Both the position numbers and the translations under genes were made by a program. Shown in pieces: positions 10,368 through 61,600 of a stretch of 64,000 bases of DNA (the first letter of the stretch is position 1; each line of letters begins with the position of its first letter). Under the pieces are notes generated by a model. The model worked only from the letters and a program-made list of their open reading frames with translations. It had not been told where the DNA came from and searched no databases. This DNA is from Thermoanaerobaculia bacterium (GTDB lineage: Bacteria > Acidobacteriota > Thermoanaerobaculia > Gp7-AA8), in NCBI GenBank assembly GCA_035482045.1, contig DATHRD010000081.1, forward strand, positions 6,238 through 70,237, read 5' to 3'.

Positions 10368-11429
10368 CTACGACCGGCAGCTCGTCTGCGCCTCGGCCAT
10401 GGCCTTCTCCAGATCGCCGCGCGCGCTCGTGCGCGATTGCGGCACGGCCTCGATTGCGGCACGGAATGTCGTCAGCGCTTCATCGCACGCGCCTTTCGCT
10501 GCCAGCACGCGGGCCAGCGTATCAAGGACCAGGTACGAATCGGATCCGTGCTGGGCCACGGCTTTTCTCGCCAGTGACTCGGCCTCGTCGTAACGCTTCG
10601 ACTCGTAGAGAAGCCAGGCCAGATTGTTGAGGGCATCGCGGGACGTGGGATCGAGTGCGAGCGCTTTGCGGAAGGCATCCTCGGCCTCGGCGCGATGGCC
10701 GAGCAGCGTCTCCGCATTGCCGAGGTTTGTCCAGGTCAGAAGAGAGTCAGGATGATGGGAGAGGATCGCGCGATAGGCGTGTGCGGCATCGCCGTACTTG
10801 CCGGCATCCTCGAGGGCCACCGCGGAGCGTAGCGCGGCAGAATCATCGGCCGGATGGATCAGAATCGCCGCGTGGCCGCCGCCTGACCAGGCGTTTTCCA
10901 GCCGGCCGAACGTCGTCCAGCGTCCTTTGCCGTCGCCGAACTGCGTGCGCACGAGACCGGCCGCCGGATCGATTCCGTCCACGACGACGTAGTGGAAAAA
11001 GTCGTATTGGTGGCCGGGCCCATTCACTACCTGCAGCATCAGGATCACCGGCTGTCCCTGCCGCAACTCCCCTTCCACGATGGCCGGAGTCCCGGTGACG
11101 AGCTGCGCGTCGAAGCCCGCCTTGCGTGCCGCGATCAGCAGATCGATCGTGAGCACGCCACCGTGAGTCTTCGGCAGCGTCGCATCCCACGTCTGCATCG
11201 TCGTGGTGTCACCGTAGTGTTGCAGGACGGTCGAGAGCGATCCCGCGCCGCATGACTCGATGCCCCAGCGCTGCTCCGGAACGTTCGGGATTACCGTTGC
11301 AGTGGGGGAGGGGTGTTGGGTTCTGGGGGTGATGGTGATGCAGGAAGTGAGTGTCAGGAGGGCGCTGAGAAGAAGCTGAATGCCCGCGGGAGTCGGGAGT
11401 CGGGGGTCGGGGGTCGGAGCAGGAGCCAA
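10368..11429 (-). CDS. PA2778-like cysteine peptidase (C39-like) fused to TPR repeats, lipoprotein
   Basis: LLSALLTLTSC lipobox; papain/C39-like core (Cys in GIESCGAGS, His in GPGHQYDFFHYVVV); C-terminal TPRs. The ORF's first approx. 50 codons run through a hairpin repeat, so the TTG at 11429 is proposed as the start. Confidence 0.6.
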   Translation of the reverse strand: MAPAPTPDPRLPTPAGIQLLLSALLTLTSCITITPRTQHPSPTATVIPNVPEQRWGIESCGAGSLSTVLQHYGDTTTMQTWDATLPKTHGGVLTIDLLIAARKAGFDAQLVTGTPAIVEGELRQGQPVILMLQVVNGPGHQYDFFHYVVVDGIDPAAGLVRTQFGDGKGRWTTFGRLENAWSGGGHAAILIHPADDSAALRSAVALEDAGKYGDAAHAYRAILSHHPDSLLTWTNLGNAETLLGHRAEAEDAFRKALALDPTSRDALNNLAWLLYESKRYDEAESLARKAVAQHGSDSYLVLDTLARVLAAKGACDEALTTFRAAIEAVPQSRTSARGDLEKAMAEAQTSCRS

Positions 11430-11571
11430 GACGTTCTCTCCGACACCCGACACCCGACCCCCGACTCCCGAAGCACGAATGTTGACTGTTGACGGGAGCC
11501 GGGAGTGGGGAGTTGGAGCTGTAACGATCTCTCCGACCCCCGACCCCCGACCCCCGACTCCCGTCCTCAAC
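11387..11571. repeat. Two adjacent tandem-repeat hairpins, GGGAGTC/GGGGGTC arrays facing GACCCCC/GACTCCC arrays
   Basis: Inverted arrays seen directly; overlaps the 5' end of the peptidase ORF. Confidence 0.8.
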
Positions 11572-12051: not shown

Positions 12052-12240
12052 CAAGACGGGTGCCGGGTTGCGGTTGCGCGGTCGCGAGGTCGCGAGGTAG
12101 CGCGGTCGCGAGGTTGCAAGGTTGCAAGGTTGCTGAGTTGTCGGTTGTCAGGTTTGCCAACTGCCATAGCAACCCAGCAACCCAGCAACCTAGCAACCGC
12201 GAGACCGCGCAACCGCGAGACCCCGCAACCGCGAGACCGC
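12052..12240. repeat. Approx. 190-bp tandem-repeat hairpin (GTCGCGAG/GTTGCAAG arrays ... AGCAACC/GCGAGACC arrays) in a divergent promoter region
   Basis: Left arm and reverse-complement right arm separated by a 9-nt loop; sits between the divergent PA2779-like and rel genes. Confidence 0.8.
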
Positions 12241-12270
12241 GAGACCCCAACCACGATACGATCTTAGAGA

Positions 12271-17208: not shown

Positions 17209-17513
17209 TCTTAGTCTTCCTTTTCTTCCAATAACATGGCTATGAGCACGATACGAGCCAACGTGTGATCGAGGATTCCGATCCGCCTGGAACAAGAGCA
17301 TCCGCACCGACACCCGGTCACGACGACTCCGGGTGACCAACTCATCACGAGTGCGGAGCACGCATCCTCATCCGTATCAGTCTCACCGGCCGGGTGTCAC
17401 CGTTTGCTTTGTGCCCCCATCCGACAGGAGAAATTTGTCCTCGGGCCGACCGGTTCGAAACGGGAGCAAAATTCGCCGATCTCAGAGTCTTTCCTAGGGG
17501 CAAACGCATACCG

Positions 17514-19502
17514 ATGGCCGATCACTCGCTGAAGCGCAGTTATTTTTTCTTCGTCCTCTTGCTTCTCACCTCGAGCGTTGCCTTCGCGGATTCTCCGTCG
17601 GGCCGCTATGAGAGCCGGATGGTGTGGGACACACCCATCCATCGAGCTGTGCTGTTCGGTGGCTCGACAGCCATCGACTCCGGGACGAAGATCGCGTACG
17701 AACGGAACGACACATGGGAATGGACCGGGTACCGGTGGCTTGAGGTATACCCCGTTCACAGCCCGTCAAACCGTGCCGCCCATGGGATGATCTTCGACTC
17801 CGTCCGCAACCGGCCGGTGGTTTTCGGCGGCCGTCAGAGCACAATCAATTCCAACGGCACGTCGAGCTTCGTCAATCTCAACGATACATGGAGCTTCGAC
17901 GGAACCGACTGGACGCAGATCCAGACGGCGGACTCCCCCTCCGTCCGAGAGCTGCCCGGCATGGTGTACGACTCCGCGCGCGATCGCATCGTGCTCTTCG
18001 GCGGCATCGTGCAGACCTACACCGGCCCCACCCTGAGAATACTCAACGAAACGCCACTCAAGGATACGTGGGAGTTCGACGGTACCGACTGGCATCAGAT
18101 CCAGGTCGACGGCCCCCTCGTGTACAAGCCGATCCTGGCCTACGACCCCATCCTCAAACAGACCATCATGATCGGCTACAACAACCCGACCGACGTCGTC
18201 ACGGTGATGTATGCCTACGATCCGGTCGGGGGAACCTGGAATCAACTCAAACCCGCCTTACTGCCGGCCTGCGCCAACGAAGGCGCGATGACATTTGACG
18301 GCGCGGACAGCAAGATCCTCTTCACGGGCGCGACCTGCCTCAGCTCGATCAACACGGAGGACACGTATGAGTGGGACGGGTCGAACTGGACGAAGATCAC
18401 CCTGACGTCGTTTGCCGGCCGCTACTACGGGGAGGCCCTGACCTACGACCCCGATCACCAGGTGGTCGTGCTCTTCGGCGGCGCCCAATTGGTCGGCCCT
18501 CTCCTGTCCGCCACGTACACCTACACCAACACGGTCTGGCAGGGCGCGGGCGATCTCGATTTCCCGGCGCCGCGCTCGCTCTTCATGTTCCTTTCGGATC
18601 CCGTTCACAACGTGATCTATCTTTATGGCGGTCTGAACGACGCCACGAGTTTCTTCGATTTCTGGATCTATCAGAACGGGCAGTTTCATCCGAATCTCGA
18701 CGGGACCCAGCCCTCCGCTTGCTCGTTGCCGCTCGGCGTGTTCGACACCGACCGCCAGAAGGTCGTGATGTTCTGTTCGGATAGCTCGACCTGGGAGTTC
18801 GATGGAGCGGCGTGGACCCAGTTCGACTCGTCGAAGACCGCACCTCCCGCGCATGAATGGGGCAGCCTGGCCTATGACCAGAGTCTGAAGAAGACAGTCT
18901 TCTTCGGCGGCTTCGATCCCAGCAACAACAGCTATCTGGATCAGACCTGGACGTACGACGGGACCAGTTGGACGCAGGTCACGAAGAACCCCCCAACATC
19001 GCGCTCTCATGCCTCGATCTGGTACGACCCGACCCTGAAAAAGACCTTGATCTACGGCGGGATCGGCCGGCTCACGTCCACCGATCGCCTGACGCGCTAC
19101 AGCGACATGTGGTCGTTTGACGGCACAGGCTGGACCGCGGTTGTCCCGGCGGCGACGCCGGGCATGCGTTACGGTGCACTGACAGCCATCGATCCGACGA
19201 CGAACCATGCCCTCATCTTCGGCGGGATCAGAGTCGATACCGACCCGACCAACAATCAGGTGCAGGTCTACGCGAACGACATGTGGGACTGGGACGGCAC
19301 GAAATGGACCCAGATCAACACGGCCGCCGTTCCGCCTCCCCGCGAGAACGCCGGCCTGGCCCTTGATCCTCTCCGCAACCAGCTCATCATGTTCGGCGGT
19401 TACAGCGGCTTCTACCTCTCCGACGTCTGGACCCTCGGCAACGGCAGTTGGTCACAGGTGTTTCAGGTCCTGAACCGGCGCCGGGCAGCAGCGGGGCACT
19501 GA
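17514..19502 (+). CDS. Secreted Kelch-repeat beta-propeller protein (approx. 13 repeats)
   Basis: Signal peptide; reiterated DTWEFDG(T/S)DWTQI and VLFGG motifs typical of Kelch blades. Confidence 0.8.
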
Positions 19503-19590
19503 TCGGCTCGGGAGTCGGGGGTCGGGAGTCGGGAGTCGGAACTGGATCGGCTCCGACCCCCGACCCCCGACCCCCGACCCCCGACCAACG
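19503..19590. repeat. GGGAGTC-family hairpin (four or five repeat units per arm)
   Basis: ggctcgggagtcgggggtcgggagtcgggagtcgga-actggat-cggctccgacccccgacccccgacccccgacccccgacc. Confidence 0.85.
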
Positions 19591-19614: not shown

Positions 19615-20883
19615 GTGAGCTCCCTGAAAACTCGAGCGTTTCCGCTGGCCCTGGGGGCGGACCATGGTGGTTTTGAGCTGAAAGAGCAGCTCAAGACTCA
19701 TTTGCGCGAGAAGGGTCATACCGTTCACGATCTCGGTACCCACAGTAAGGACGCTGTCGACTATCCCAGGATCGCCAAAGCCGTCGCCGATCTCGTCGCA
19801 GCGGGGACCGTCCGCTTCGGAATCATGGTGGACGGAGCCGGAATCGGCTCGGCCATGACGGCCAACAAAGTGCCCGGCATCCTGGCTGCAGCCGCCTACA
19901 ATGAGATACTTGCGCGAAACAGCCGCGAGCATAATGATGCGAACGTTCTGACGCTCGGGGCCGGTCAGGTGGATGTCGACACGGCGAAACGGATCGTCGA
20001 GGTCTTTCTCGAAACGGAGTGCACCGCGGATCGGCACCGCGCGCGGGTGAAGATGATCCGCGAGATGGATAAAGGAGGGCGTGGGGTGAGCTCGAGGGGC
20101 AGCGACTTGTCAGCGGAGGACACTGCTCGGATCGCCGACCGGGTGCGGCAGCTCCTCCAGCAGGGCGGTGCCTCCACGCTGCCCGCCACGAACGTCCTTC
20201 CCCCGGAGAAGCTGGTCAAGCTGATCGACCACACGCTGCTCAAGCCCGAAGCAACCGCCGAGGACATCGAGAAACTCTGTCAGGAGGCTTCGCGGTTCGG
20301 CTTCTATTCCGTGTGCGTGAATCCGACATGGGTGGCCAAGGCGAAATCCCTCCTTCGCGGGACCTCAGTGAAGGTCTGCGCCGTGGTCGGCTTCCCGCTC
20401 GGCGCGCAGTCCCCGGAGATCAAGACCCTCGAGGCGCGCCGCGCTCTACGGGAAGGGGCGCAGGAAATCGACATGGTGATCAACATCGGCGCGCTGAAGA
20501 GCAAAGACGACCGTCTGGTGGCGCGCGACATCCGCGGAGTGGTCGAGGCCTGCGACGAAGCGCGTGCCGTCTCCAAAGTCATCCTGGAGACCGCGCTGCT
20601 CAACGACGAGGAAAAGGTCCGAGGATGCCAGCTTGCCATGAAGGCGCGTGCCGGCTTTGTGAAGACCTCGACCGGCTTCTCGAAGGCGGGCGCCACCGTC
20701 GAGGACATCGCCCTGATGGCGCGCACCGTGGCTCCCCGTAAGCTCGGCGTGAAAGCTTCCGGCGGAGTACGCACCTACGCCGACGTATTGAAGATGGTGG
20801 AAGCGGGCGCCACCCGCGTGGGCAGCTCCAATAGTGTCAAGATTCTGGAAGAGGCCACGCAATTGGCCTCGGGGAAGAGGTGA
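19615..20883 (+). CDS. Fused ribose-5-phosphate isomerase B (RpiB/LacAB family) and deoxyribose-phosphate aldolase (DeoC), with an amphipathic inter-domain helix; candidate microcompartment cargo enzyme
   Basis: N-terminal RpiB motifs ([31 protein letters not shown]); linker [19 protein letters not shown]; C-terminal DeoC motifs ([18 protein letters not shown], Schiff-base Lys in VKTSTGF). Confidence 0.85.
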
Positions 20884-20886
20884 ACG

Positions 20887-21510
20887 GTGGCTGAGCTTCG
20901 CTGCTATGTATTCATCGACAGCCTGCAGCCCCAGTTCGCTTCGTTCCTCGGAACGATCGCTCAGGGATTTCTTCCGGTGCCGGGCCAGGCCTCGCTGTTC
21001 GTCGAGGTTTCGCCGGGCATGGAGATCATGAGCGTGACCGACGTCGCCCTCAAGGCCACCGACGTCCGGCCGGGGATGATGATCATCGAGCGCCTCTACG
21101 GCATGCTCGAACTGCACTCAGATTCACAGGCCGATGTGCGCCAGGCCGGCCAGGCCATCCTCGATTCTCTGAATCTGAAGGAAACAGACCGCATCAAGCC
21201 CGAGATCACCTCCAGCCAGGTGATCCGCAACATCTCCGACTACCATACGCAGCTCATCAACAGGACCCGTCACGGTGACATGATCGTTCCGGGGCAGACC
21301 CTGTATGTGCTGGAGGTGGCGCCCGCGGGCTACGCGGCGATTGCGGCCAACGAGGCGGAGAAGGCGGCCAACATCAATGTCCTCGAGGTGCGGGCCTTTG
21401 GAAGCTTCGGGCGCGTTTACCTCGGCGGCGAAGAACGCGACATCGACGTCGGATACCGGGCTGCGGAGCAGGCCATTGCATCGATTGCCGGACGCGCCGG
21501 AAGGCCGTGA
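20887..21510 (+). CDS. BMC-T shell protein (tandem BMC domains)
   Basis: Two BMC-fold segments, each ending in the alpha/beta pattern ([13 protein letters not shown]... and [48 protein letters not shown]). Confidence 0.65.
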
Positions 21511-21700
21511 AAAGCAAACCAGAAACCAGAAAGCAGAAACGAGAAAACTAGAACCAGAAATAGAGAACTAGAAACCAGAGAGCAGAAATGAGCTAGAAGC
21601 AGAATCCAGAAGGCAGATCGCTGAACGGGGTTTTTCTCCGACTCCCGACTCCCGACTCCCGACCCCCGCCTTCTGGTTTCTAGTTTCCGATTTTGAGGAG
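21511..21700. repeat. Purine/A-rich degenerate tandem repeat (AGAAACCAGAA units) followed by a (GACTCCC)3 block and a reverse-complement arm, inside the microcompartment operon
   Basis: approx. 105 nt of AGAAAC-type repeats, then cggggttttt, (gactccc)3, and ccttctggtttctagtttc complementary to the upstream repeat; strong GAGGAGG RBS immediately after. Confidence 0.8.
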
Positions 21701-21705
21701 GACGC

Positions 21706-22017
21706 ATGACAGACGCACTAGGCATGATCGAAACGAGGTCTTTTCCGGCGGTAGTGGAAGCCGCCGACGCGGCGGTTAAGGCTGCGCGAGTGGATCTCGT
21801 CTCCTATGAGAAGACGGGTGGCGGATACACAACGATCGTCGTCCGCGGAGATGTTGCGGCGGTGAAAGCGGCGTGCGATGCGGCGCAGACCGCGGCAGGA
21901 CGGGTTGGCGACGTCGTGACCGTGCACGTGATCGCCCGGCCGCACGACCAGGTCGACGTCATCATGCCGCTCGGCCGAAAGCAGGCGGCGCCGCAGGGTC
22001 ACGAGAAGAAGAAGTAA
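21706..22017 (+). CDS. BMC-H shell protein (PduA/EutM/CcmK-like hexamer)
   Basis: ALGMIETRSFPAVVEAADAAVKAARVDLVSYEKTGGGYTTIVVRGDVAAVKAA is the canonical BMC domain; GAGGAGG RBS. Confidence 0.9.
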   Translation: MTDALGMIETRSFPAVVEAADAAVKAARVDLVSYEKTGGGYTTIVVRGDVAAVKAACDAAQTAAGRVGDVVTVHVIARPHDQVDVIMPLGRKQAAPQGHEKKK

Positions 22018-22032
22018 CAGGACCTACGTCCA

Positions 22033-22320
22033 ATGCAACTCGCGAGAGTCGTGGGAACCGTCGTGGCCACGCTTAAGGAGGAGAGCATGCAGGGGATCAA
22101 ACTCCTGGTCGTGCGTCCTCTCGATGAAGAAGGCCGCGAGAGCGGCAATGCGATCGTGTCGGCTGACGCGGTGGGAGCCGGTCCGGGCGAGGTCGTGCTG
22201 ATCGCGGCCGGAAGCTCGGCCCGGCAAACCGTGGTCACGGACAAGCGTCCCGTCGATTCGGTGGTCATGGCCATCGTCGACAGCTGGCATGTTGCCGATA
22301 CCGTGAAGTACAAGAAGTGA
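22033..22320 (+). CDS. BMC-P vertex protein (EutN/PduN/CcmL family), paralog 1
   Basis: MQLARVVGTVVAT...KLLVVRPLD...VVLIAAGSSAR, approx. 95 aa pentamer-type fold. Confidence 0.85.
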   Translation: MQLARVVGTVVATLKEESMQGIKLLVVRPLDEEGRESGNAIVSADAVGAGPGEVVLIAAGSSARQTVVTDKRPVDSVVMAIVDSWHVADTVKYKK

Positions 22321-22327
22321 GCCGCCG

Positions 22328-23782
22328 ATGACGCGCCTGACCGATCAGGAAATCGACGAGATCGCGCGGCGCATCGCCGCCGAGATGGGCGGCCGCGGCG
22401 CGGAACCTGCCCGGAGCGGAGCCGAAGGCCCTCCGCCCGTCCAGTCTCACGAGATGAGTCTCGGGGTTTTTGCCACGGTATCCGACGCCGTGCGCGCGGC
22501 GACCACCGCACAGAAAGAGTTCGTCGCGCTCAAGCTCGCCCATCGAGCCCGCATCCTCGAAGCGATGCGCCAGGCGATGCGCGAGAACGAATCGGTTCTC
22601 GCGAAAGCGGCGTTTGAAGAGACCGGCCTTGGACGCTACGAAGACAAGGTCATCAAGAATCGACTCGTCACGGAAAGGACCCCGGGCCTGGAAGATCTCG
22701 TTCCCGTGGCCACGACGGGGGACAACGGTCTCACGCTCGTCGAGCCCGCGCCGTTCGGTGTGATCGGCGCCATCACGCCCGTCACCAACCCCACATCCAC
22801 GATCATCTGCAACTCGATCGGGATGCTGGCCGCCGGCAACAGCGTCGTGTTCAACGTCCACCCGTACGCGAAGAACTGCTGCATGCAGACCATCGCCCTG
22901 CTCAACAAGGCCATCGCCGGCGCCGGCGGCCCTGCCAATGTCATCACCGGCGTGGCCAACCCGACTATCGAGTCGGCGCAGGAGCTGATGAAGCATCCAG
23001 GCGTGCGTTTGGTGGTCGTGACGGGTGGGGGAGAAGTCGTCAAGGTTGCCATGAGCAGTGGCAAGCGGGCCATCTGTGCCGGCCCTGGGAATCCGCCGGT
23101 GGTCGTGGACGAGACGGCGGACATCGACAGAGCGGCGCGCGACATCATCCTCGGCGCCTCCACCGACAACAACATCATCTGCACCGACGAGAAGGAAACC
23201 ATCGCCGTCTCGTCGATCGCCGACGCCCTCATCGCCTCGATGGGACGGCAAGGGGCGGTCGTTCTTCCGCGGGAGCGGCTCGCCGAGTTGGAGAAAGTCG
23301 TGTTCACGGAGATGAAGGGCCCGAGGCAGAAGGCCTGGATCGACAAGAACCTCGTCGGAAAGAACGCCTCCGCGATTCTGGCCAGGATGGGGATGAACGT
23401 TCCCGACGCGGTCCGCCTGGTCGTCGTCGAGGTCGATGAGAGCCATCCGTTGCTCTGGACCGAACAGATGATGCCGGTCATGCCCGTCGTTCGAGTCTCC
23501 GACGCGAACCGTGCCATCGATCTGGCGGTCCAGTTGGAAGGCGGGAACCGTCACACCGCGGTGATGCATTCGAAGGATCTCGACAATCTCAGCCGCATGG
23601 CCAAGGCGTGCGACTGCTCGATCTTCGTCAAGAACGGCCGCTCGCAGGCCGGCCTCGGGCTCGATGGCGAGGGCTATTGCTCCTTCACGATCGCCAGCCC
23701 CACCGGCGACGGCATGACCGGACCGCGATCATTCTCACGCTGGCGCCGCTGCGTGCTCGTCGGTCACTTCAGGATCACGTGA
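22328..23782 (+). CDS. CoA-acylating aldehyde dehydrogenase (PduP/EutE-like) with an N-terminal encapsulation peptide
   Basis: N-terminal amphipathic helix TDQEIDEIARRIAAEM plus Gly/Pro linker; ALDH core with catalytic Cys (NNIICTDE); C-terminal FTIASPTGDG motif. Confidence 0.9.
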   Translation: MTRLTDQEIDEIARRIAAEMGGRGAEPARSGAEGPPPVQSHEMSLGVFATVSDAVRAATTAQKEFVALKLAHRARILEAMRQAMRENESVLAKAAFEETGLGRYEDKVIKNRLVTERTPGLEDLVPVATTGDNGLTLVEPAPFGVIGAITPVTNPTSTIICNSIGMLAAGNSVVFNVHPYAKNCCMQTIALLNKAIAGAGGPANVITGVANPTIESAQELMKHPGVRLVVVTGGGEVVKVAMSSGKRAICAGPGNPPVVVDETADIDRAARDIILGASTDNNIICTDEKETIAVSSIADALIASMGRQGAVVLPRERLAELEKVVFTEMKGPRQKAWIDKNLVGKNASAILARMGMNVPDAVRLVVVEVDESHPLLWTEQMMPVMPVVRVSDANRAIDLAVQLEGGNRHTAVMHSKDLDNLSRMAKACDCSIFVKNGRSQAGLGLDGEGYCSFTIASPTGDGMTGPRSFSRWRRCVLVGHFRIT

Positions 23783-24396
23783 TGAGGAAGACGTCCGCTT
23801 TCGCCGTCCTCGATTTCTCCGACATTCCGTCGGGCGTCTGCGCGGTCGATTCCATTCTAAAGAAAGCGCCCATCGCATTCGTGCGGGCCGGAACGGTGAC
23901 GCACGGCCGTTATCTGGTCGTGTTCGGCGGTTCGACCGCCGCCACCGCCGAGTCGCTGGCCGAGGCGCTGGCGACGAGCGGCAGCGCGATCATCGATCAC
24001 AGCTTCCTGCCGGATGCGCATCCGGTACTCTTCGACGCGGCGTTCGGGGCGCGCCGGAAATCGACGGGCTCGCTTCTCATCATCGAGACCGAGACCGCCT
24101 CCTCGATCGTTCGCGCCGTGGAAGCGGCTCTCAAAGGAACGCCGGTCGAGCTGATCGAGATGCGCCTTGCCGACGCGGGGTTGGCGGGCAAGGGAATCGC
24201 GCTGATGGCCGGCTCGCTCCACGACGTCGAAGCGGCAGCGGCCCTGGCGGCCGAAGGAACCCGAGACGCTCCATCGCCCCGAGGCTTCTCGCATCGGCTC
24301 ATCGCAGCGCCGCACGAGATCATGGAGCGCGAAATCGCAGCGGTGATGCGATTCGACATCGCCCCTCTCCTCGATCTGGATGGGGAGGCCGGCTGA
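23782..24396 (+). CDS. BMC-T shell protein (tandem BMC domains), second paralog
   Basis: ATG overlaps the AldDH stop by 1 nt; two BMC-like segments (FAVLDFSDIPSGVCAVDSILKKAP... and LLIIETETASSIVRAVEAALKGTPVELIEMRLADAGLAGKGIALMAGSLHDVEAAAALA). Confidence 0.65.
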   Translation: MRKTSAFAVLDFSDIPSGVCAVDSILKKAPIAFVRAGTVTHGRYLVVFGGSTAATAESLAEALATSGSAIIDHSFLPDAHPVLFDAAFGARRKSTGSLLIIETETASSIVRAVEAALKGTPVELIEMRLADAGLAGKGIALMAGSLHDVEAAAALAAEGTRDAPSPRGFSHRLIAAPHEIMEREIAAVMRFDIAPLLDLDGEAG

Positions 24397-24665
24397 TGCT
24401 TCTGGGCCGCGTCATCGGTCAGGTCGTACCGTGCGTGGTGACGCCCGGACTCGAGGGCGTGCCGATGCTCATCGTGCAGCCGCTGGACAAGATGCTGAAG
24501 CCGAAAGGAAAGGCCATCGTCGCCGCCGATGCCACGCGCATGGCCGGCCCGGGCGAGCTGGTCTCGTACGAAGGCGGGCGTGAGGCGGCCATGTCTCTCG
24601 ATCCGGCGTTCGTACCGATCGATCACGCCATCCTGGCGATCGTCGACGGGGTCAACATCTCGTGA
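24396..24665 (+). CDS. BMC-P vertex protein, paralog 2
   Basis: MLLGRVIGQVVPCVV...PMLIVQPLD; 1-nt overlap with the upstream stop. Confidence 0.85.
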   Translation: MLLGRVIGQVVPCVVTPGLEGVPMLIVQPLDKMLKPKGKAIVAADATRMAGPGELVSYEGGREAAMSLDPAFVPIDHAILAIVDGVNIS

Positions 24666-24931
24666 TCCTCGGACGCGTCATCGGCGAGATCCACGGGACG
24701 ATCAAGCACCCGTTCTACGAAGGCAAGAAGCTCCTGGTGATCGAGAAGACCTCACCCTCGGGCGACCCGACCGGCGACTACCTCATCGCCGCCGACTCGG
24801 TCGGCGCCGGCGCCCACGAGCGCGTTCTCGTACTCGACGAAGGCAATGGCGCGCGGCAGGTGTTCGACTCGAAGGACGGCCCAGTCCGCTCCGTCGTTGT
24901 GGGGATCATCGACGATGTTGTGAGTGGCTGA
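24662..24931 (+). CDS. BMC-P vertex protein, paralog 3
   Basis: MILGRVIGEIHGTIK...KLLVIEK; GTGA start/stop overlap. Confidence 0.85.
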   Translation: MILGRVIGEIHGTIKHPFYEGKKLLVIEKTSPSGDPTGDYLIAADSVGAGAHERVLVLDEGNGARQVFDSKDGPVRSVVVGIIDDVVSG

Positions 24932-24934
24932 GGT

Positions 24935-25060
24935 GTCGCGGCCGTGCAGGTCACGCGGTCGCGCAGTCACGCGGTCTCGCAGTTCCCAGGTCCCGTGCTG
25001 TCCGGTACGTTCCCCGCCGAGAGACCCCGAGACCGCGCGACCGCGCGACCGCCTAACCGC
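24935..25060. repeat. Tandem-repeat hairpin (GTCACGCG/GTCGCGCA arrays ... GAGACC/GCGCGACC arrays) after the microcompartment operon
   Basis: gtcgcggccgtgcaggtcacgcggtcgcgcagtcacgcggtctcgcag ... gagaccccgagaccgcgcgaccgcgcgaccgc. Confidence 0.75.
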
Positions 25061-25171
25061 GCTGCTGAGCTTTCCAAAAACATAGAGACGCGACGCAGCC
25101 GCGGACGTAAGTTGCTGTCCGTCGCTGATCCGAAACTCGCGGCGACCCAGTGGGCGCACTCTAGCGCGCCA

Positions 25172-25206
25172 GCCCGTTGCGACGGCCGAGCAACGGGCAT
25201 TTTTTT
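25172..25206 (+). terminator. Intrinsic terminator: 9-bp GC stem (GCCCGTTGC/GCAACGGGC) followed by T7
   Basis: gcccgttgcgacggccgagcaacgggcattttttta; the only canonical U-tract terminator noticed in the window; sits at the convergent junction closing the microcompartment operon. Confidence 0.65.
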
Positions 25207-25576
25207 AGGCTGTGCTTCGGATCGGCTGCGCGATGAGTGCCAGATCGACGGTCGAGACGAGGTCGTCGTCGATCTCCTCGGGTTTGATGACCCGTACCGA
25301 CGGGAGCGCGCGCCTGACCGTCTCCACAGCCGCCGCGATGACGATGATGGCGACGTTTTGTCCGTGCAGCGCCTCGATCCTGCGAACCAGGGCAATGGCG
25401 GTGAGCACCGGCAGATCGATGACAACGCCCTCGACGTTCGGCGCTCCGGAGATCCGTTCCATGGTGGCGTCGTCGACGATCTTGCTGACCATGTACCCGG
25501 CCGTGCCAAGCAGGGTGGCAGCGCGAGACGCGCCCGGGTCAGCACGCAGGAGCAGATGCGGCGTGAGTTGCGTCAT
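25205..25576 (-). CDS. Receiver-like (CheY-fold) single-domain protein, degenerate
   Basis: VVIDLPVLTAI and VRVIKP resemble receiver D and K positions, but the N-terminal acidic pair is missing. Confidence 0.45.
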   Translation of the reverse strand: MTQLTPHLLLRADPGASRAATLLGTAGYMVSKIVDDATMERISGAPNVEGVVIDLPVLTAIALVRRIEALHGQNVAIIVIAAAVETVRRALPSVRVIKPEEIDDDLVSTVDLALIAQPIRSTA

Positions 25577-26000
25577 TCGAGGCCTCGTTTCTGTAGGTCG
25601 TGCGCAGCAGGCGGCTGTGATCGATCAGGGTTTGAATGCGGGCGATGATCTCCATCGGCTCCTGCGACTTCGTGATGAAGCCATCCGCGCCGAGCTCTTC
25701 GGTCATGGCGGCCAGTTCGTTCGGAGAACGGCCGGAGAAGAGGACGAGCAGGGCGCTGGTCCGGAGCAGACGCCTGAGCCCCTGGCGGAGTGCGGCGGTG
25801 CTGGAGAGCGCGGGGAGGCTGACGTCGAGCAGGACGACATCCGGGTCGGCTTCTCGCAGGATCAACGGCAGCGTGATCATCGAGTCGTGCATGACCACGT
25901 CGATACCGCTGATCTCGAGCAGCGCCTTCATCCCTTCCAGGAGATCGTGCTGGTCATCGACGATCAGCACGCGGCCGCGTGTTTCGTTGCGGGCGCTCAT
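25539..26000 (-). CDS. Single-domain response regulator (receiver only)
   Basis: LIVDDQ, VVLLDVSLP (phospho-Asp), LFSGRS, FITKS conserved receiver positions. Confidence 0.7.
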   Translation of the reverse strand: MSARNETRGRVLIVDDQHDLLEGMKALLEISGIDVVMHDSMITLPLILREADPDVVLLDVSLPALSSTAALRQGLRRLLRTSALLVLFSGRSPNELAAMTEELGADGFITKSQEPMEIIARIQTLIDHSRLLRTTYRNEASNDATHAASAPAC

Positions 26001-26434
26001 CGAGACCCCGCCTGAACGCGCCGCACGAGTCCGGCCACAGCCTGGGGATGCAGCGGTTTGATGAGGTAGTCGTCGATGCCGTAGTGCAGCTTCGCCTCGT
26101 TCTGATAGCGCGTGTGCTTGTAGATCGCCGTCATGATGGCGATGTGCGGACGGTAGTCGGGGTCGATGTGCCGGATGAAGCGGGAGATCTCGAATCCGTG
26201 CATCTCCGGGAGCAGCCCGTCGAGCAGGATGAGGTCCGGCCGGCTCTCGGAGGCGACGCGAATGGCCTCGAAGCCGCTGCTGGCCGTGAACGGAGCGATG
26301 TGCAAGGCCCGGAACTGCTCGATCAGCGACCAGCGCAGCTTCCGCTCGTCTTCGACGATCAGTACCGTCGGCAATGCGGCATCGTCGGTTGGGTGGTACG
26401 GAAGGTCAGGAACTGCGATCTCGGCAATGCTCAT
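25997..26434 (-). CDS. Single-domain response regulator (receiver only)
   Basis: LIVEDE, LILLDGLLP, IMTA, YLIKP receiver positions; 4-nt overlap with the downstream receiver gene. Confidence 0.7.
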   Translation of the reverse strand: MSIAEIAVPDLPYHPTDDAALPTVLIVEDERKLRWSLIEQFRALHIAPFTASSGFEAIRVASESRPDLILLDGLLPEMHGFEISRFIRHIDPDYRPHIAIMTAIYKHTRYQNEAKLHYGIDDYLIKPLHPQAVAGLVRRVQAGSR

Positions 26435-31757: not shown

Positions 31758-33026
31758 ATGCTTTCCCGCGAATATCTCCGCGAACATACGGACGCCTATC
31801 GCACCGCGCTGAAGAACCGCGGCGCGAACGTTGATCTCGAGCGCTTTCTCGAACTCGACATCGAGCGCCGCCGCACCATCGCTCAAGTCGAGGCGCTCAA
31901 AGCGCAACGCAACGCGGCGTCGCAGGAGATCGCGAGCCTCAAGAAGAACAAGCAGGACGCCGGCGCGCAGATCGAGGCGATGAAGGGCGTCGGCGACGAG
32001 ATCAGGAAGCTCGATGAGCAACTCGCCGTGATCGAGGCGGATCTGCGCAATGTCGAGCTCTACTTCCCCAACGTCCCGCACGAATCCGTTCCCGTGGGTC
32101 CGGACGAGACGCACAACCGCGTCGAGCGCGCCTGGGGTGAGAAACCCGCGTTTTCGTTCACGCCGAAGGCGCACTGGGACATCGGCGAGGCGCTCGGCAT
32201 CCTCGATTTCGACCGCGCCTCCAAGATCACCGGCGCCCGGTTCTCTATCTTGACCGGTGCCGGGGCGAAGCTGAATCGGGCGCTGATCAACTTCATGCTC
32301 GACATCCACGAGCAGCAGAACTACGTGGAGGTCGTCCCGCCGTTCATGGTCAACGCCGACTCGCTTCGGGGCACGGGACAACTGCCGAAGTTCGAGGAAG
32401 ACCTCTTCAAGCTGACGGATCGCGACTACTACCTGATTCCCACGGCCGAGGTGCCTGTCACGAATCTTCATCGCGACGAGATTCTCGATGGGGCCAAACT
32501 GCCAATCTCGTACACCGCCTACTCGCCGTGCTTCCGCAGCGAGGCCGGGTCGTACGGCAAAGATACGCGGGGTCTCATCCGACAGCATCAGTTCGAGAAA
32601 GTGGAGATCGTGAAATTCACGACGCCCGAGACATCGTGGGAGGAGCACGAGAAGCTCACCGCTGATGCCGAGGCCGTGCTGCGCGCCCTCGGTCTGCACT
32701 ACCGCGTCATGACTCTCTGTACGGGCGACATGGGCTTCACTGCGGCGAAGACCTACGACCTGGAAGTGTGGCTGCCGGGGCAGCAGACCTATCGCGAGAT
32801 CAGCTCCTGCTCCAACTTCGTCGATTTCCAGGCTCGGCGCGCCAATATCCGCTATCGCTCCACGGAGAAGAAGACGGGCTACGTTCACACCCTCAACGGC
32901 TCCGGCCTGGCGATCGGCCGCACGCTCGTGGCCATCCTCGAGAACTACCAGAATGAGGATGGGTCGGTGCGGGTGCCGGAGGCGTTGCGGGGGTACATGA
33001 AGGGTGTGGAGGTCATTAGCTCTTAG
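31758..33026 (+). CDS. serS: Seryl-tRNA synthetase
   Basis: N-terminal coiled-coil arm, class II motifs ([41 protein letters not shown]). Confidence 0.9.
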
Positions 33027-33128
33027 CTCTTAGCTGTTAGCTCTTGGCTCGGAGGGGAAAGGGCAAAGGCGCACCAAGAGCGCACCAAGAGCGCACCAAG
33101 AGCTGAGAGCTAAGAGCTAACAGCGGCT
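33027..33128. repeat. Tandem-repeat hairpin (AGCTCTT/AGCTGTT array ... GCGCACCAAGA x3 ... AGCTAAGAGCT)
   Basis: tagctcttagctcttagctgttagctcttggctc ... gcgcaccaagagcgcaccaagagcgcaccaagagctgagagctaagagctaacagc. Confidence 0.8.
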
Positions 33129-35659: not shown

Positions 35660-35782
35660 AAGGCTCAATGTTGAATGTTGAATGTTCAGTGTTGAATGTT
35701 GAATGGACGCAGCAGTAGGTCTGAGTCATTCAACACTCAACATTCAACATTCAACATTCGACTCTCAACGTTCGACTCTCCC
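35660..35782. repeat. TTGAATG-family hairpin
   Basis: ctcaatgttgaatgttgaatgttcagtgttgaatgttgaatg ... cattcaacactcaacattcaacattcaacattcgactctcaacgttcg. Confidence 0.85.
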
Positions 35783-37400: not shown

Positions 37401-37548
37401 CCCACACGGTGCAGAACCCCGAATTCTGGAAGGCGTACGGCTGCAAGGACGGCCAGCCGATGGTGCGCGACGCGTCAAAACGCTGTTCGATCTGGTGACG
37501 GGAGGCCATGAATTGCCTCGGGGGAGTCCGTGAATTGACTCCGTGAGT

Positions 37549-37752
37549 TCATGAATTGCCTCCGGGAAGCAATCAATTGCCCGGGAAGCAATCAATTGCC
37601 TCCGGGAAGCAATCAATTGCCTCCGGGAAGCAATCAATTGCCTCCGGGAAGCAATCAATTGCCTCCGGGAGCCAATCAATTGCCTCCGGGAAGCAATCAA
37701 TTGCCTCCGGGAACCAATCAATTGCCTCCGGGAAGCAATCAATTGCCTCCCG
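37549..37752. repeat. Tandem array of approx. 9.5 copies of a 21-bp unit CAATCAATTGCCTCCGGGAAG (each contains the near-palindrome GCAATCAATTGC), flanked by direct repeats CATGAATTGACTCC
   Basis: Units are contiguous and nearly identical (one lacks 2 nt; variants gccaatc and gaaccaatc). Both strands give spurious ORFs (NQLPPGS-type repeats). Confidence 0.9.
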
Positions 37753-37839
37753 GGGGTCCATGAATTGACTCCACGAGGGTGTTTTCAAATCCGACGATTG
37801 CGAAACTGCGGTTGGCGAGTCCGTTAGCCGCCTTGGCGT

Positions 37840-40552: not shown

Positions 40553-40712
40553 GCGGTAGCGAGGTTTTCTAGTTGCGGGTTGCAAGGTTGCTCGGTTGCG
40601 AGGTTGCTGGGTTGCGCGATTTGTCGGTAGCTTCATTGCCCGACATCTCCTGACAACGCAGCAACCCAGCAACCTTGCAACCCCAGCAACCAACCCACGA
40701 GACCCCGCGCCC
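40553..40712. repeat. GTTGCGAG-family hairpin (GGTTGC array ... GCAACC array)
   Basis: agttgcgggttgcaaggttgctcggttgcgaggttgctgggttgcg ... gcagcaacccagcaaccttgcaaccccagcaaccaaccc. Confidence 0.8.
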
Positions 40713-43307: not shown

Positions 43308-43432
43308 GATGTTTGAATGTTCAATGTTGAATGTTCAATGTTGGATGTTGAATGACCGAGTCCGAGTGATTCAACTCCGAACATCAACACTGAACATTCA
43401 ACATTCCGCATTCAACATTCAACGTTCAGTAT
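43308..43432. repeat. TTGAATG-family hairpin
   Basis: gtttgaatgttcaatgttgaatgttcaatgttggatgttgaatg ... cattcaacattccgcattcaacattcaacgttcag. Confidence 0.85.
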
Positions 43433-45573: not shown

Positions 45574-45957
45574 ATGCACGATACCCGACGAATCACGCTC
45601 GTCTCCCGCCGCGCCGATCAACCCTCCCGCGATTGGAATCTCCACCCCCGGGCGGCCAACCACATCATCTTCGCTGGCACCTTTTCCGTGCTCAGCTTTG
45701 CCGTCGATCACGTCTCGCAGGACGTCGACCGGATCCTTATCGACAGAACCGCCACGCCGGAAGAGTTCCTGGATCTGCTCACGACCCTGCCTTCCGCGTT
45801 TCTCGGCGACGTGCTCCTGATGCGCGACCACGACGGCTCGTTCCTCAGCACCGCTGGCCGCGCCGGTGGCCGCCTGCTGTATGCGCTGACGCCGGCCGAC
45901 CTGCAGTTCTACCTGGACACGCTGGGGTTGGTGACGACCGAGGCGGTTGCGGCGTAG
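45574..45957 (+). CDS. Hypothetical protein
   Basis: ORF with an RBS, unrecognised sequence; co-directional with the preceding small ORF. Confidence 0.3.
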   Translation: MHDTRRITLVSRRADQPSRDWNLHPRAANHIIFAGTFSVLSFAVDHVSQDVDRILIDRTATPEEFLDLLTTLPSAFLGDVLLMRDHDGSFLSTAGRAGGRLLYALTPADLQFYLDTLGLVTTEAVAA

Positions 45958-46290
45958 GGGAGTGGGGAGTGGGGAGTAGTCAAAGACAATTTTGAATGGT
46001 GAATGTTCAATGTTGAATGCTCAATGTTCGAGGTTGTGCCGGCTCCATTCGACACTCAACATTGAACATTCGGCATTCAACACTCGCCGTTCCTCCACCT
46101 TGGTGACGACCTAGGCGGTTCGGTGTTGGGGAGTGGGGTGCGGGGGGAAGCCAAAGACGATGTCGAATGGTGAATGGTCAATATTGAATGCTCAATGTCC
46201 GGGGTTGTATCGGCTCCATTCAACATTGAACATTCGACGTTCAACATTCGCCGTTCCTCCACACCCCACTCCCCACACCCCACCCGCCAC
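45955..46290. repeat. Composite nested element: outer (GGGGAGT)n / (CCCCACT)n arms enclosing two TTGAATG-family hairpins
   Basis: ggggagtggggagtggggagtag ... two copies of gaatggtgaatg(t/g)tcaat(g/a)ttgaatgctcaatgt ... ccattc(g/a)acattgaacattcg ... ccccactccccacaccccaccc. Confidence 0.8.
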
Positions 46291-46307
46291 ATGCTACCTT
46301 TACCGTA

Positions 46308-61484: not shown

Positions 61485-61583
61485 TTGAAAGGATGAAGGT
61501 GGAAGGATGAAGGATGAAGGATGAAGTCAGAAGGCGAGGCGAAGGCATGCATCCTTCCGCCTTCCGCCTTCATCCTTCTGCTT

Positions 61584-61600
<17 letters not shown>
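61485..61600. repeat. GGATGAA-family hairpin; right arm overlaps the last codons of uppS
   Basis: ggatgaaggtggaaggatgaaggatgaaggatgaag ... cttccgccttccgccttcatccttc. Confidence 0.8.

Follow-up and report, generated by a model that had tools for sequence, protein, structure and literature searches.

We analyzed a 64,000-nucleotide stretch of the soil-metagenome contig DATHRD010000081.1 from a Thermoanaerobaculia bacterium of the Acidobacteriota (assembly GCA_035482045.1; this whole stretch is called the window, and coordinates are counted from its first letter). Our subject is a set of eight co-directional open reading frames (ORFs) on the plus strand at 19615-24931, which together encode the shell proteins and enzymes expected of a bacterial microcompartment (BMC). 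Six of the products are shell proteins; the other two are a fusion of an RpiB-like domain to an aldolase for deoxyribose-5-phosphate (DERA) and a CoA-acylating aldehyde dehydrogenase (AldDH) that carries a putative encapsulation peptide (EP). In our judgment this is probably a complete operon of the sugar phosphate utilization (SPU) type, subtype SPU3, for a microcompartment that processes deoxyribose-5-phosphate. Its parts are as follows.

19615-20883, plus strand: fused RpiB-like/DERA enzyme, 422 aa, GTG start
20887-21510, plus strand: BMC-T(dp), a double-stacking trimer protein with tandem permuted domains, CcmP-like clade, 207 aa
21511-21705: heptamer-repeat spacer inside the operon, 195 nt
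21706-22017, plus strand: BMC-H, main hexameric shell protein, 103 aa
22033-22320, plus strand: BMC-P1, a pentamer vertex protein, 95 aa
22328-23782, plus strand: CoA-acylating AldDH with an N-terminal EP, 484 aa
23782-24396, plus strand: BMC-T(s), a single-layer trimer protein with tandem domains, PduT/HO-T1 type, 204 aa
24396-24665, plus strand: BMC-P2, 89 aa
24662-24931, plus strand: BMC-P3, the final gene of the operon, 89 aa, GTG start

All eight products matched database profiles, and PDB entries as well, at the positions where a reading of the window from its sequence alone (hereafter the sequence-only reading) had placed them. The GC content at third codon positions (GC3) is 0.74-0.86, as in the rest of the genome (sequence 64% GC). 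That reading had counted nine genes, but there are eight: no conserved or coding-like ORF was found in 24932-25206 or elsewhere in the operon, and the count of nine is either a miscount or the result of taking the fusion as two genes. Overlaps of 1-4 nt, which had been described throughout, are present at the last three of the seven junctions and not at the others, the distances in operon order being +3, +195, +15, +7, -1, -1 and -4 nt. The ATG of BMC-T(s) overlaps the AldDH stop codon by 1 nt, and the GTG of BMC-P3 overlaps the BMC-P2 stop codon by 4 nt. The first gene can have no N-terminal extension, since an in-frame stop precedes 19615 and no other start codon lies between the two. The 195-nt spacer at 21511-21705 consists of about ten AAACCAG-type heptamers, followed by (CCGACTC)x4.4 and then by an inverted match to A/G-rich repeats, and it ends in a strong ribosome-binding site, GAGGAGG, for BMC-H. 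At the equivalent position relatives have spacers of about 20-90 nt, and the 195-nt spacer had no blastn match. As a candidate structured element it was rejected, because it folds no better than shuffled sequences (z = -0.17) and is not conserved.

Within the two enzymes we distinguish the following segments, the helix of the fusion being placed from an AlphaFold2 (AF2) model, its hydrophobic moment and its conservation.

19642-20070, plus strand: RpiB-like domain, residues about 10-152 (PF02502, 1.9e-48, residues 12-148)
20107-20163, plus strand: internal EP-like amphipathic helix between the two domains, residues about 165-183
20203-20868, plus strand: DERA domain, residues about 197-418 (PF01791, 9e-17, residues 201-399)
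22334-22390, plus strand: N-terminal EP of the AldDH, residues about 3-21, with a Pro/Gly/Ala linker to about residue 42

The fusion itself was borne out: the Pfam search placed PF02502 N-terminal to PF01791, and the protein scored 278.7 bits against TIGR00126 deoC (cutoff 117). The DERA residues D286, K321 and K350 align with the catalytic D102, K167 and K201 of E. coli DeoC and do not vary among the 20 fused homologues compared, which come from several phyla. The RpiB half, by contrast, does not look like the normal isomerase that had been assumed. Relative to E. coli RpiB, it has D73 in place of the catalytic Cys66 and A75 in place of Thr68, whereas H106 corresponds to the retained His99; the change of C66 to D is found in 19 of the 20 fused homologues and that of T68 to A in all 20. 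Judging from these residues, the domain is probably not a ribose-5-phosphate (R5P) isomerase. Across the same homologues, only 38 of its 146 positions are invariant, among them all the pocket residues D16, H17, Y50, H106, N107, R140, H141 and R144, which correspond to D9, H10, Y43, H99, N100, R133, H134 and R137 of E. coli RpiB. In the AF2 model of the fusion, whose mean pLDDT is 77.7, residues 10-133 and residues 197-418 each form a folded domain, and between them lies an isolated helix, residues 167-182, whose flanking segments have pLDDT <50. This interdomain helix has a high hydrophobic moment, and its motif LSxxDxxRIAxRVxxLL is kept across phyla, while the linkers on either side vary.

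The AldDH is, by sequence, an acylating enzyme of the PduP/EutE type, as the sequence-only reading had proposed. It scored 645 bits against NF011927 (cutoff 403), its weaker family matches are all to acylating enzymes, and its top PDB match is 5JFL, the BMC CoA-acylating AldDH of R. palustris (3e-137). Its predicted catalytic residue, Cys285 (nt 23180-23182), aligns with the thioacylated Cys of 5JFN, and AGPGNPP stands at the site where hydrolytic aldehyde dehydrogenases (ALDHs) have the ELGGK glutamate motif; the signs of a non-acylating enzyme are thus not seen. The N-terminal encapsulation peptide that had been claimed is likewise recovered, as a conserved amphipathic helix, MTRLTDQEIDEIARRIAAEM, before a variable Pro/Gly/Ala-rich linker. 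The EP motif LTDxEIDxIARRIA is kept from Thermoanaerobaculia to Marinimicrobia, and the linker that follows it is not conserved. In two long-read metagenome-assembled genomes (MAGs; MFD isolates), the AldDH homologue lies in three reading frames (L007 10840-12281 and L025 10865-12189 of our comparison loci), which may reflect homopolymer sequencing errors or pseudogenization.

All six shell ORFs matched BMC or EutN profiles in the profile search, and among solved structures their products mostly come closest to the model shell of Haliangium ochraceum (HO). BMC-H (PF00936, 2.3e-28) has the HO BMC-H 5DJB as its top natural PDB match (1e-35) and retains the edge motifs, with VKAAR and ARPH aligned to HO KAAK and PRPH. 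BMC-T(dp) scored 327 bits against NF053796 CcmP; its PDB matches are CcmP 5LSR/4HT5 (2e-78, residues 2-204), the HO T protein of 5V74 (7e-72) and CsoS1D (2e-57), and its I-E-R-L-Y-G segment is the same as that of CcmP in the alignment. BMC-P1 (PF03319, 1.5e-29) has as its top PDB match the HO shell pentamer of 5V74 (1.8e-27), and the other two pentamer proteins match the same family (BMC-P2, 8e-18; BMC-P3, 5.6e-23). Pairwise identities among the three are 31-39%, BMC-P2 being 39% identical to P1 and 31% to P3, which indicates an old triplet and not recent duplicates. BMC-T(s) has two PF00936 matches (1.9e-17), and its top PDB match is HO BMC-T1, 5DIH (1e-19). Its Thr40 stands where 5DIH has Ser and 5DII has Cys, so the protein lacks a pore cysteine; a PduT-like Fe-S center was considered and rejected for the same reason. 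The structure 5DII is that of the variant engineered for Fe-S cluster binding.

These genes place the locus among the SPU loci proper, as an ordinary member of subtype SPU3. SPU loci were defined by the combination of DeoC, RpiB and AldDH, with an aldolase-isomerase fusion in Marinimicrobia, and the term "SPU-like" was kept for a variant with a class II aldolase (Axen et al. 2014). One of the commonest BMC types, SPU has since been cataloged in more than 280 loci from 26 phyla, in seven subtypes (Sutter et al. 2021, Nat Commun 12:3809). We used the SPU3 definition of that catalog (Suppl. Data 2). It lists as enzymes an AldDH, pfam01791 and pfam02502; in 12 loci the latter two are fused, pfam02502 coming first. 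An EP lies at the AldDH N-terminus and possibly within the fusion. The shell has a single standard BMC-H and a triplet of BMC-P, along with a T(dp) of the CcmP-like clade and a T(s) without PduS or a pore cysteine, and Acidobacteria are among the host phyla. The window locus has the DeoC-type aldolase with its Asp/Lys/Lys set, the N-terminal RpiB fusion with an internal EP-like helix, the EP at the AldDH N-terminus, the BMC-P triplet, the CcmP-like BMC-T(dp), a BMC-T(s) lacking both pore cysteine and PduS, and BMC-H. A later curation of 206 SPU loci counted 20 SPU3 loci with the fusion and reported that every SPU locus has a BMC-P triplet or more and that Cys66 is changed to Asp in every SPU ribose-5-phosphate isomerase homologue (RPI) (Dwyer et al. 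2024, Commun Biol 7:1562). The SPU-wide replacement of Cys66 with retention of His99 is seen here as D73 and H106. The same study noted that it is the SPU types lacking a phosphotransacylase (PTAC) that have a T(dp), and the window locus fits this pattern.

Against this literature, the claim of the sequence-only reading that the operon encodes a sugar-phosphate-utilizing metabolosome is well founded, shell profiles, DERA residues and an acylating AldDH all having been recovered, whereas several of its qualifications need revision. "SPU" stands but "-like" does not, since the catalogs reserve that suffix for the class II aldolase variant and the aldolase here is a class I DeoC. Three BMC-P genes in one locus, which had been called unusual, are the rule for SPU loci (Dwyer et al. 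2024). Nor does the class still lack a characterized representative: the SPU6 DERA was active on deoxyribose-5-phosphate in vitro, the SPU6 RPI had negligible R5P isomerase activity and the two form a 1:1 complex (Dwyer et al. 2024), and SPU-type shells from Hodarchaeales were reconstituted in a 2025 preprint.

Comparison with the nearest known systems leads to the same assignment. The enzyme and shell sets of SPU3 (Sutter 2021, Dwyer 2024) are identical to those of the window locus, PTAC is absent from both and nothing essential differs. In the window's clade, however, the N-terminal extension of the DERA is shorter and lacks the segment that follows the helix in distant fusions, and the 195-nt repeat spacer is lineage-specific. 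Those distant SPU3 fusions (L012, L015, L017, L018 and L030) carry a Cys-rich interdomain insert (for example, CSCCGSDC..HGHC or CRCGVC), which may be a metal-binding site, and, beyond the EP-like helix, an additional segment that is conserved; both are missing from the window's clade. SPU6 of Chloroflexi bacterium GWB2_54_36, the only SPU type with assayed enzymes (Dwyer et al. 2024), shares with the window the DERA Asp/Lys/Lys residues, the RPI Cys66-to-Asp change, an AldDH, the BMC-P triplet and a BMC-T(dp), and its 1:1 DERA-RPI complex would be hard-wired here by the fusion. It differs from the window in that RPI and DERA are separate genes with an N-terminal EP each, the AldDH belongs to another branch and has a C-terminal EP, the T(dp) is of a different clade, T(s) is absent and the gene order is distinct (fusion or RPI/DERA > P > AldDH > H > Tdp > P > P). 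The HO model shell (5V74, 5DJB and 5DIH) provides the nearest solved homologues of BMC-H, BMC-T(s) and BMC-P1 and the second-nearest of BMC-T(dp), and it has the P triplet too. Unlike the window, HO encodes three BMC-T proteins, and its main locus is without a DERA. The window's shell is HO-like, but its first operon gene encodes a DERA and the locus is not of the HO type. The SPU-like locus of Latescibacteria (Axen et al. 2014) also has an AldDH, an RpiB-like protein and shell proteins, but its class II aldolase, PduL, PduS and acetate kinase are all missing here, where the aldolase is a class I DeoC. Of the propanediol and ethanolamine utilization (PDU/EUT) core of AldDH, phosphotransacylase and alcohol dehydrogenase, only the AldDH is present.

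The operon has a wide distribution. We searched contigs of one genome per species, in which 598 stretches encode a relative, and compared the best 80 loci. Twelve of these 80 have the identical eight-gene order, in Thermoanaerobaculia, other Acidobacteriota, Lentisphaerae, Verrucomicrobiota, Gammaproteobacteria and Marinimicrobia, and 11 additional, incomplete loci are consistent with it. Synteny stops after BMC-P3 in all relatives compared. A divergent gene order, found mostly in MAGs of the Chloroflexi lineage, probably represents SPU6. More than 120 database clusters match the fusion protein with identities of 79% or higher, the closest named one being from a Thermoanaerobaculia MAG. Protein identity to relatives is 80-98%, whereas the intergenic DNA cannot be aligned, which indicates purifying selection. 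This bears on the reading that the operon is a horizontally acquired relic, either unexpressed or unable to assemble. The patchy presence of the locus among close relatives, the non-conserved 195-nt repeat spacer inserted between the second and third genes and the failure to find a promoter-like site all agree with such a relic. However, the eight ORFs are intact and have the GC3 of the rest of the genome, the catalytic and shell-interface residues are retained, and the proteins appear to be under purifying selection; we therefore give the relic reading very little weight and prefer a functional SPU3 operon.

Further support for function comes from what occupies the same chromosomal slot in close relatives. 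An element resembling a small RNA (sRNA) gene, described below, lies just downstream of the operon, and we compared the slot in 91 metagenome contigs that carry this sRNA-like element. The order is Kelch gene, cassette, sRNA-like element, receiver genes and metG. The BMC operon lies directly upstream of the element in five contigs besides the window and is otherwise adjacent to it in about eight more. In about 30 contigs, however, the slot is filled by a cassette without shell genes:

L120, 4195-7585: shell-less cassette (also in L086, L108, L134, L135, L139, L150, L152 and about 20 more)

This cassette encodes a DeoC of 318 aa (TIGR00126, 191 bits), an ALDH of 512 aa and a shortened, 288-aa ALDH-like protein. 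The 512-aa ALDH has the ELGGK and catalytic-Cys motifs of non-acylating enzymes. The genomes with the shell-less cassette are close relatives of the source of the window (MetRS 87-95% identical); the window itself has no copy. As in the E. coli deo operon, the first reaction of this cytosolic deoC and ALDH cassette would be the DERA reaction, as in the window, followed by acetaldehyde oxidation. The cassette of these sister genomes differs from the operon in having no shell, EPs or RpiB domain, and its product would be acetate, not acetyl-CoA. Two cassettes that share their first reaction and their toxic intermediate thus alternate at one site, which supports, independently of annotation, a deoxyribose-phosphate/acetaldehyde function for the operon. 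The alternation also provides independent support for DERA and acetaldehyde oxidation as one functional unit in this lineage. Next to the slot, directly upstream of the operon, is a gene at 17394-19502 (plus strand) for a secreted Kelch-repeat beta-propeller of 702 aa. Among Thermoanaerobaculia relatives, this gene is in synteny with the BMC operon as well as with the shell-less cassette, but the SPU3 loci of other phyla do not have it, and it is a lineage-specific neighbor.

The slot comparison also bears on the direction of flux. An anabolic pathway, in which the AldDH would reduce acetyl-CoA and the DERA would join acetaldehyde and glyceraldehyde 3-phosphate into deoxyribose-5-phosphate inside the shell, is conceivable in that both reactions are reversible in vitro and nothing in the sequence sets the direction. 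We think this highly improbable: the characterized metabolosomes are all catabolic, cellular deoxyribose is made through ribonucleotide reductase, and in the syntenic cassette of relatives deoC goes with an ALDH that is non-acylating and irreversible, an arrangement that is sensible only for catabolism.

A third reading concerns the substrate. The microcompartment might process another or an additional sugar phosphate, with the RpiB-like domain, using Asp as its general base, acting as an isomerase or epimerase before or after the DERA. The invariant pocket and the fixed C66D and T68A changes suggest selection on a ligand site, not decay, and the domain scores above the TIGR01120 and NF004051 cutoffs. 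Dwyer et al. (2024) left open the possibility of a working RpiB-like isomerase. On the other hand, the negligible R5P isomerase activity of the SPU6 RPI in the same study argues against it, SPU5 loci have no RPI (Dwyer et al. 2024), C1-C2 aldose-ketose isomerization is impossible for 2-deoxy sugars, and the shell-less cassette manages with deoC and aldH and no RpiB. Taken together, these points make the reading unlikely, though less so than the relic or the anabolic one.

We therefore favor catabolism of deoxyribose-5-phosphate in an SPU3-type shell. Given the gene content, domains, catalytic residues, EP-like helices, cross-phylum synteny and cassette replacement observed here, we infer the shell assembly, encapsulation, substrate, flux direction and route of cofactor exchange of such an organelle as follows. 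The six shell proteins (one BMC-H, one T(dp), one T(s) and three BMC-P) would build an HO-like icosahedral shell, to which the two cargo proteins would be recruited by their amphipathic helices, at the N-terminus of the AldDH and between the domains of the fusion. The DERA would break down DNA-derived deoxyribose-5-phosphate, yielding acetaldehyde, which would remain confined and be converted by the acylating AldDH, through Cys285, with CoA and NAD+ to acetyl-CoA and NADH. The window has no genes for PTAC, PduS or triosephosphate isomerase; PF06130, PF01515 and PF00465 are all absent from the operon, and the sole alcohol dehydrogenase in the window is a Zn-dependent one 30 kb away. Lacking PTAC, PduS and an alcohol dehydrogenase of its own, the organelle would have to let acetyl-CoA and NADH out through the shell and CoA and NAD+ in, presumably via the gated pore of T(dp). 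The RpiB-like domain may be a partner or scaffold for the DERA, or may bind some phosphosugar.

Several observations weigh against this model. No SPU3 organelle has so far been seen or assayed. The sigma-70 promoter scan returned zero sites, and deoA, deoB, deoD, a deoxyribokinase, a transporter and a regulator were not found in the 64-kb window. The operon encodes no enzyme for internal recycling of NAD+ or CoA. Finally, the strict conservation of the RpiB-like pocket is hard to reconcile with a role as scaffold only and would allow for a second substrate.

Downstream of the operon lie two structured elements.

24949-25058: long repeat-built hairpin, 31-nt arms with 87% complementarity, 48-nt loop, no T-run
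25067-25206, plus strand: promoter-like block and sRNA-like module, with an A-tract, TAG-GAC, a variable spacer and TAAGTT at 25108-25113
about 25120-25206, plus strand: predicted sRNA-like transcript within this module, about 87 nt, three hairpins, the last being the terminator

The terminator has a 9-bp GC-rich stem (25172-25180 paired with 25190-25198) followed by T7 at 25200-25206, 240 nt beyond the last stop codon of the operon. The sequence-only reading had taken it for the end of the operon and the only canonical terminator in the window. It is indeed the only strong hairpin followed by a T-run in the 64 kb, besides one weaker, intragenic candidate, but it belongs to a separate conserved module. 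The 140 bp ending at 25206 recur with 74-78% conservation in two relatives, L002 and L004, where they lie elsewhere and on the opposite strand, and 91 soil-metagenome contigs, one of them of 4 Mb, each carry a single exact copy of a 26-nt core. In the contigs sampled, the element has metG (with or without the three receiver genes) on one side and a deoC-type module, be it the BMC operon or the free cassette, on the other, in varying orientation to metG. A consensus fold has 20 pairs, six with double-sided changes, which fall mostly in four pairs of the terminator stem. No Rfam family was found in the window at the gathering threshold, the sRNA-like element being without a match; sub-threshold matches were to miRNA-hairpin and sRNA families only, on the repeat hairpins and the terminator. 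From its conservation and predicted fold, 25120-25206 is best described as a separate, unannotated sRNA-like gene, which in the window would also halt read-through from the BMC operon. The long hairpin at 24949-25058, directly after the operon, lies in a region (24925-25215) with a fold z of -2.8 and is not conserved in relatives.

On the minus strand at 25205-26434, downstream of metG, are two stand-alone receiver domains and a 123-aa relative without a Pfam match. The three genes are kept as a block in relatives and have no adjacent output domain or kinase. We considered them as BMC regulators and rejected this, since they travel with metG and also adjoin the shell-less cassette. Elsewhere in the 64 kb the genes are of the housekeeping kind (RelA/SpoT, a Ser/Thr kinase, MetRS, SerRS, FtsK, Tol/Exb, Dxr, UppS and others).

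Repeats are common in the window. Nearly every larger intergenic spacer contains paired, inverted tandem-repeat arrays with 4-10 copies of a 7- or 8-nt unit. They form long hairpins with the short tandem repeats as arms; each site has its own unit sequence, and relatives do not share the arrays. They resemble the short tandemly repeated repetitive (STRR) heptamer repeats of cyanobacteria. Paired arrays are found at the following positions.

11387-11563
12072-12246
19508-19586
21516-21693
24937-25058
33016-33124
35667-35780
40572-40691
43313-43428
45988-46086
46217-46291
61489-61591

Two further arrays are of other kinds. At 37499-37772, between an HTH/S24 (LexA-like) gene and a gene for a decarboxylase dependent on pyridoxal phosphate (PLP), a 21-nt unit is repeated in tandem in about 13 copies, with a 42-nt super-period at 96% identity. 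At 45928-46262, upstream of ExbB/ExbD/TonB-like genes, a 171-nt unit occurs twice (83% identity) with nested heptamer repeats.

The locus as such adds little to what was known, since SPU3 is a cataloged type whose fusion, BMC-P triplet, EPs and Cys-to-Asp RPI were already on record. The slot swap appears to be new, as it is not described in the SPU literature that we examined, and together with the adjacent sRNA-like gene it is the sole part that goes beyond published work. With only eight genes in 5.3 kb, two cargo proteins and HO-like shell parts, this would be a very compact and apparently self-sufficient SPU organelle and hence a handy one to attempt to reconstitute. We tentatively propose, as a possibility that we still regard as doubtful, that in this lineage the SPU3 operon and the shell-less deoC operon are interchangeable at one slot and, separately, that the RpiB-like domain, with its conserved phosphosugar pocket and Asp for Cys, has a real catalytic or gating role. 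If the first holds, the slot swap would be a natural experiment on encapsulation, setting conservation of acetyl-CoA and containment of acetaldehyde against detoxification to acetate, and the BMC operon and the shell-less cassette in related soil populations would form a matched pair for asking why the pathway is encapsulated.

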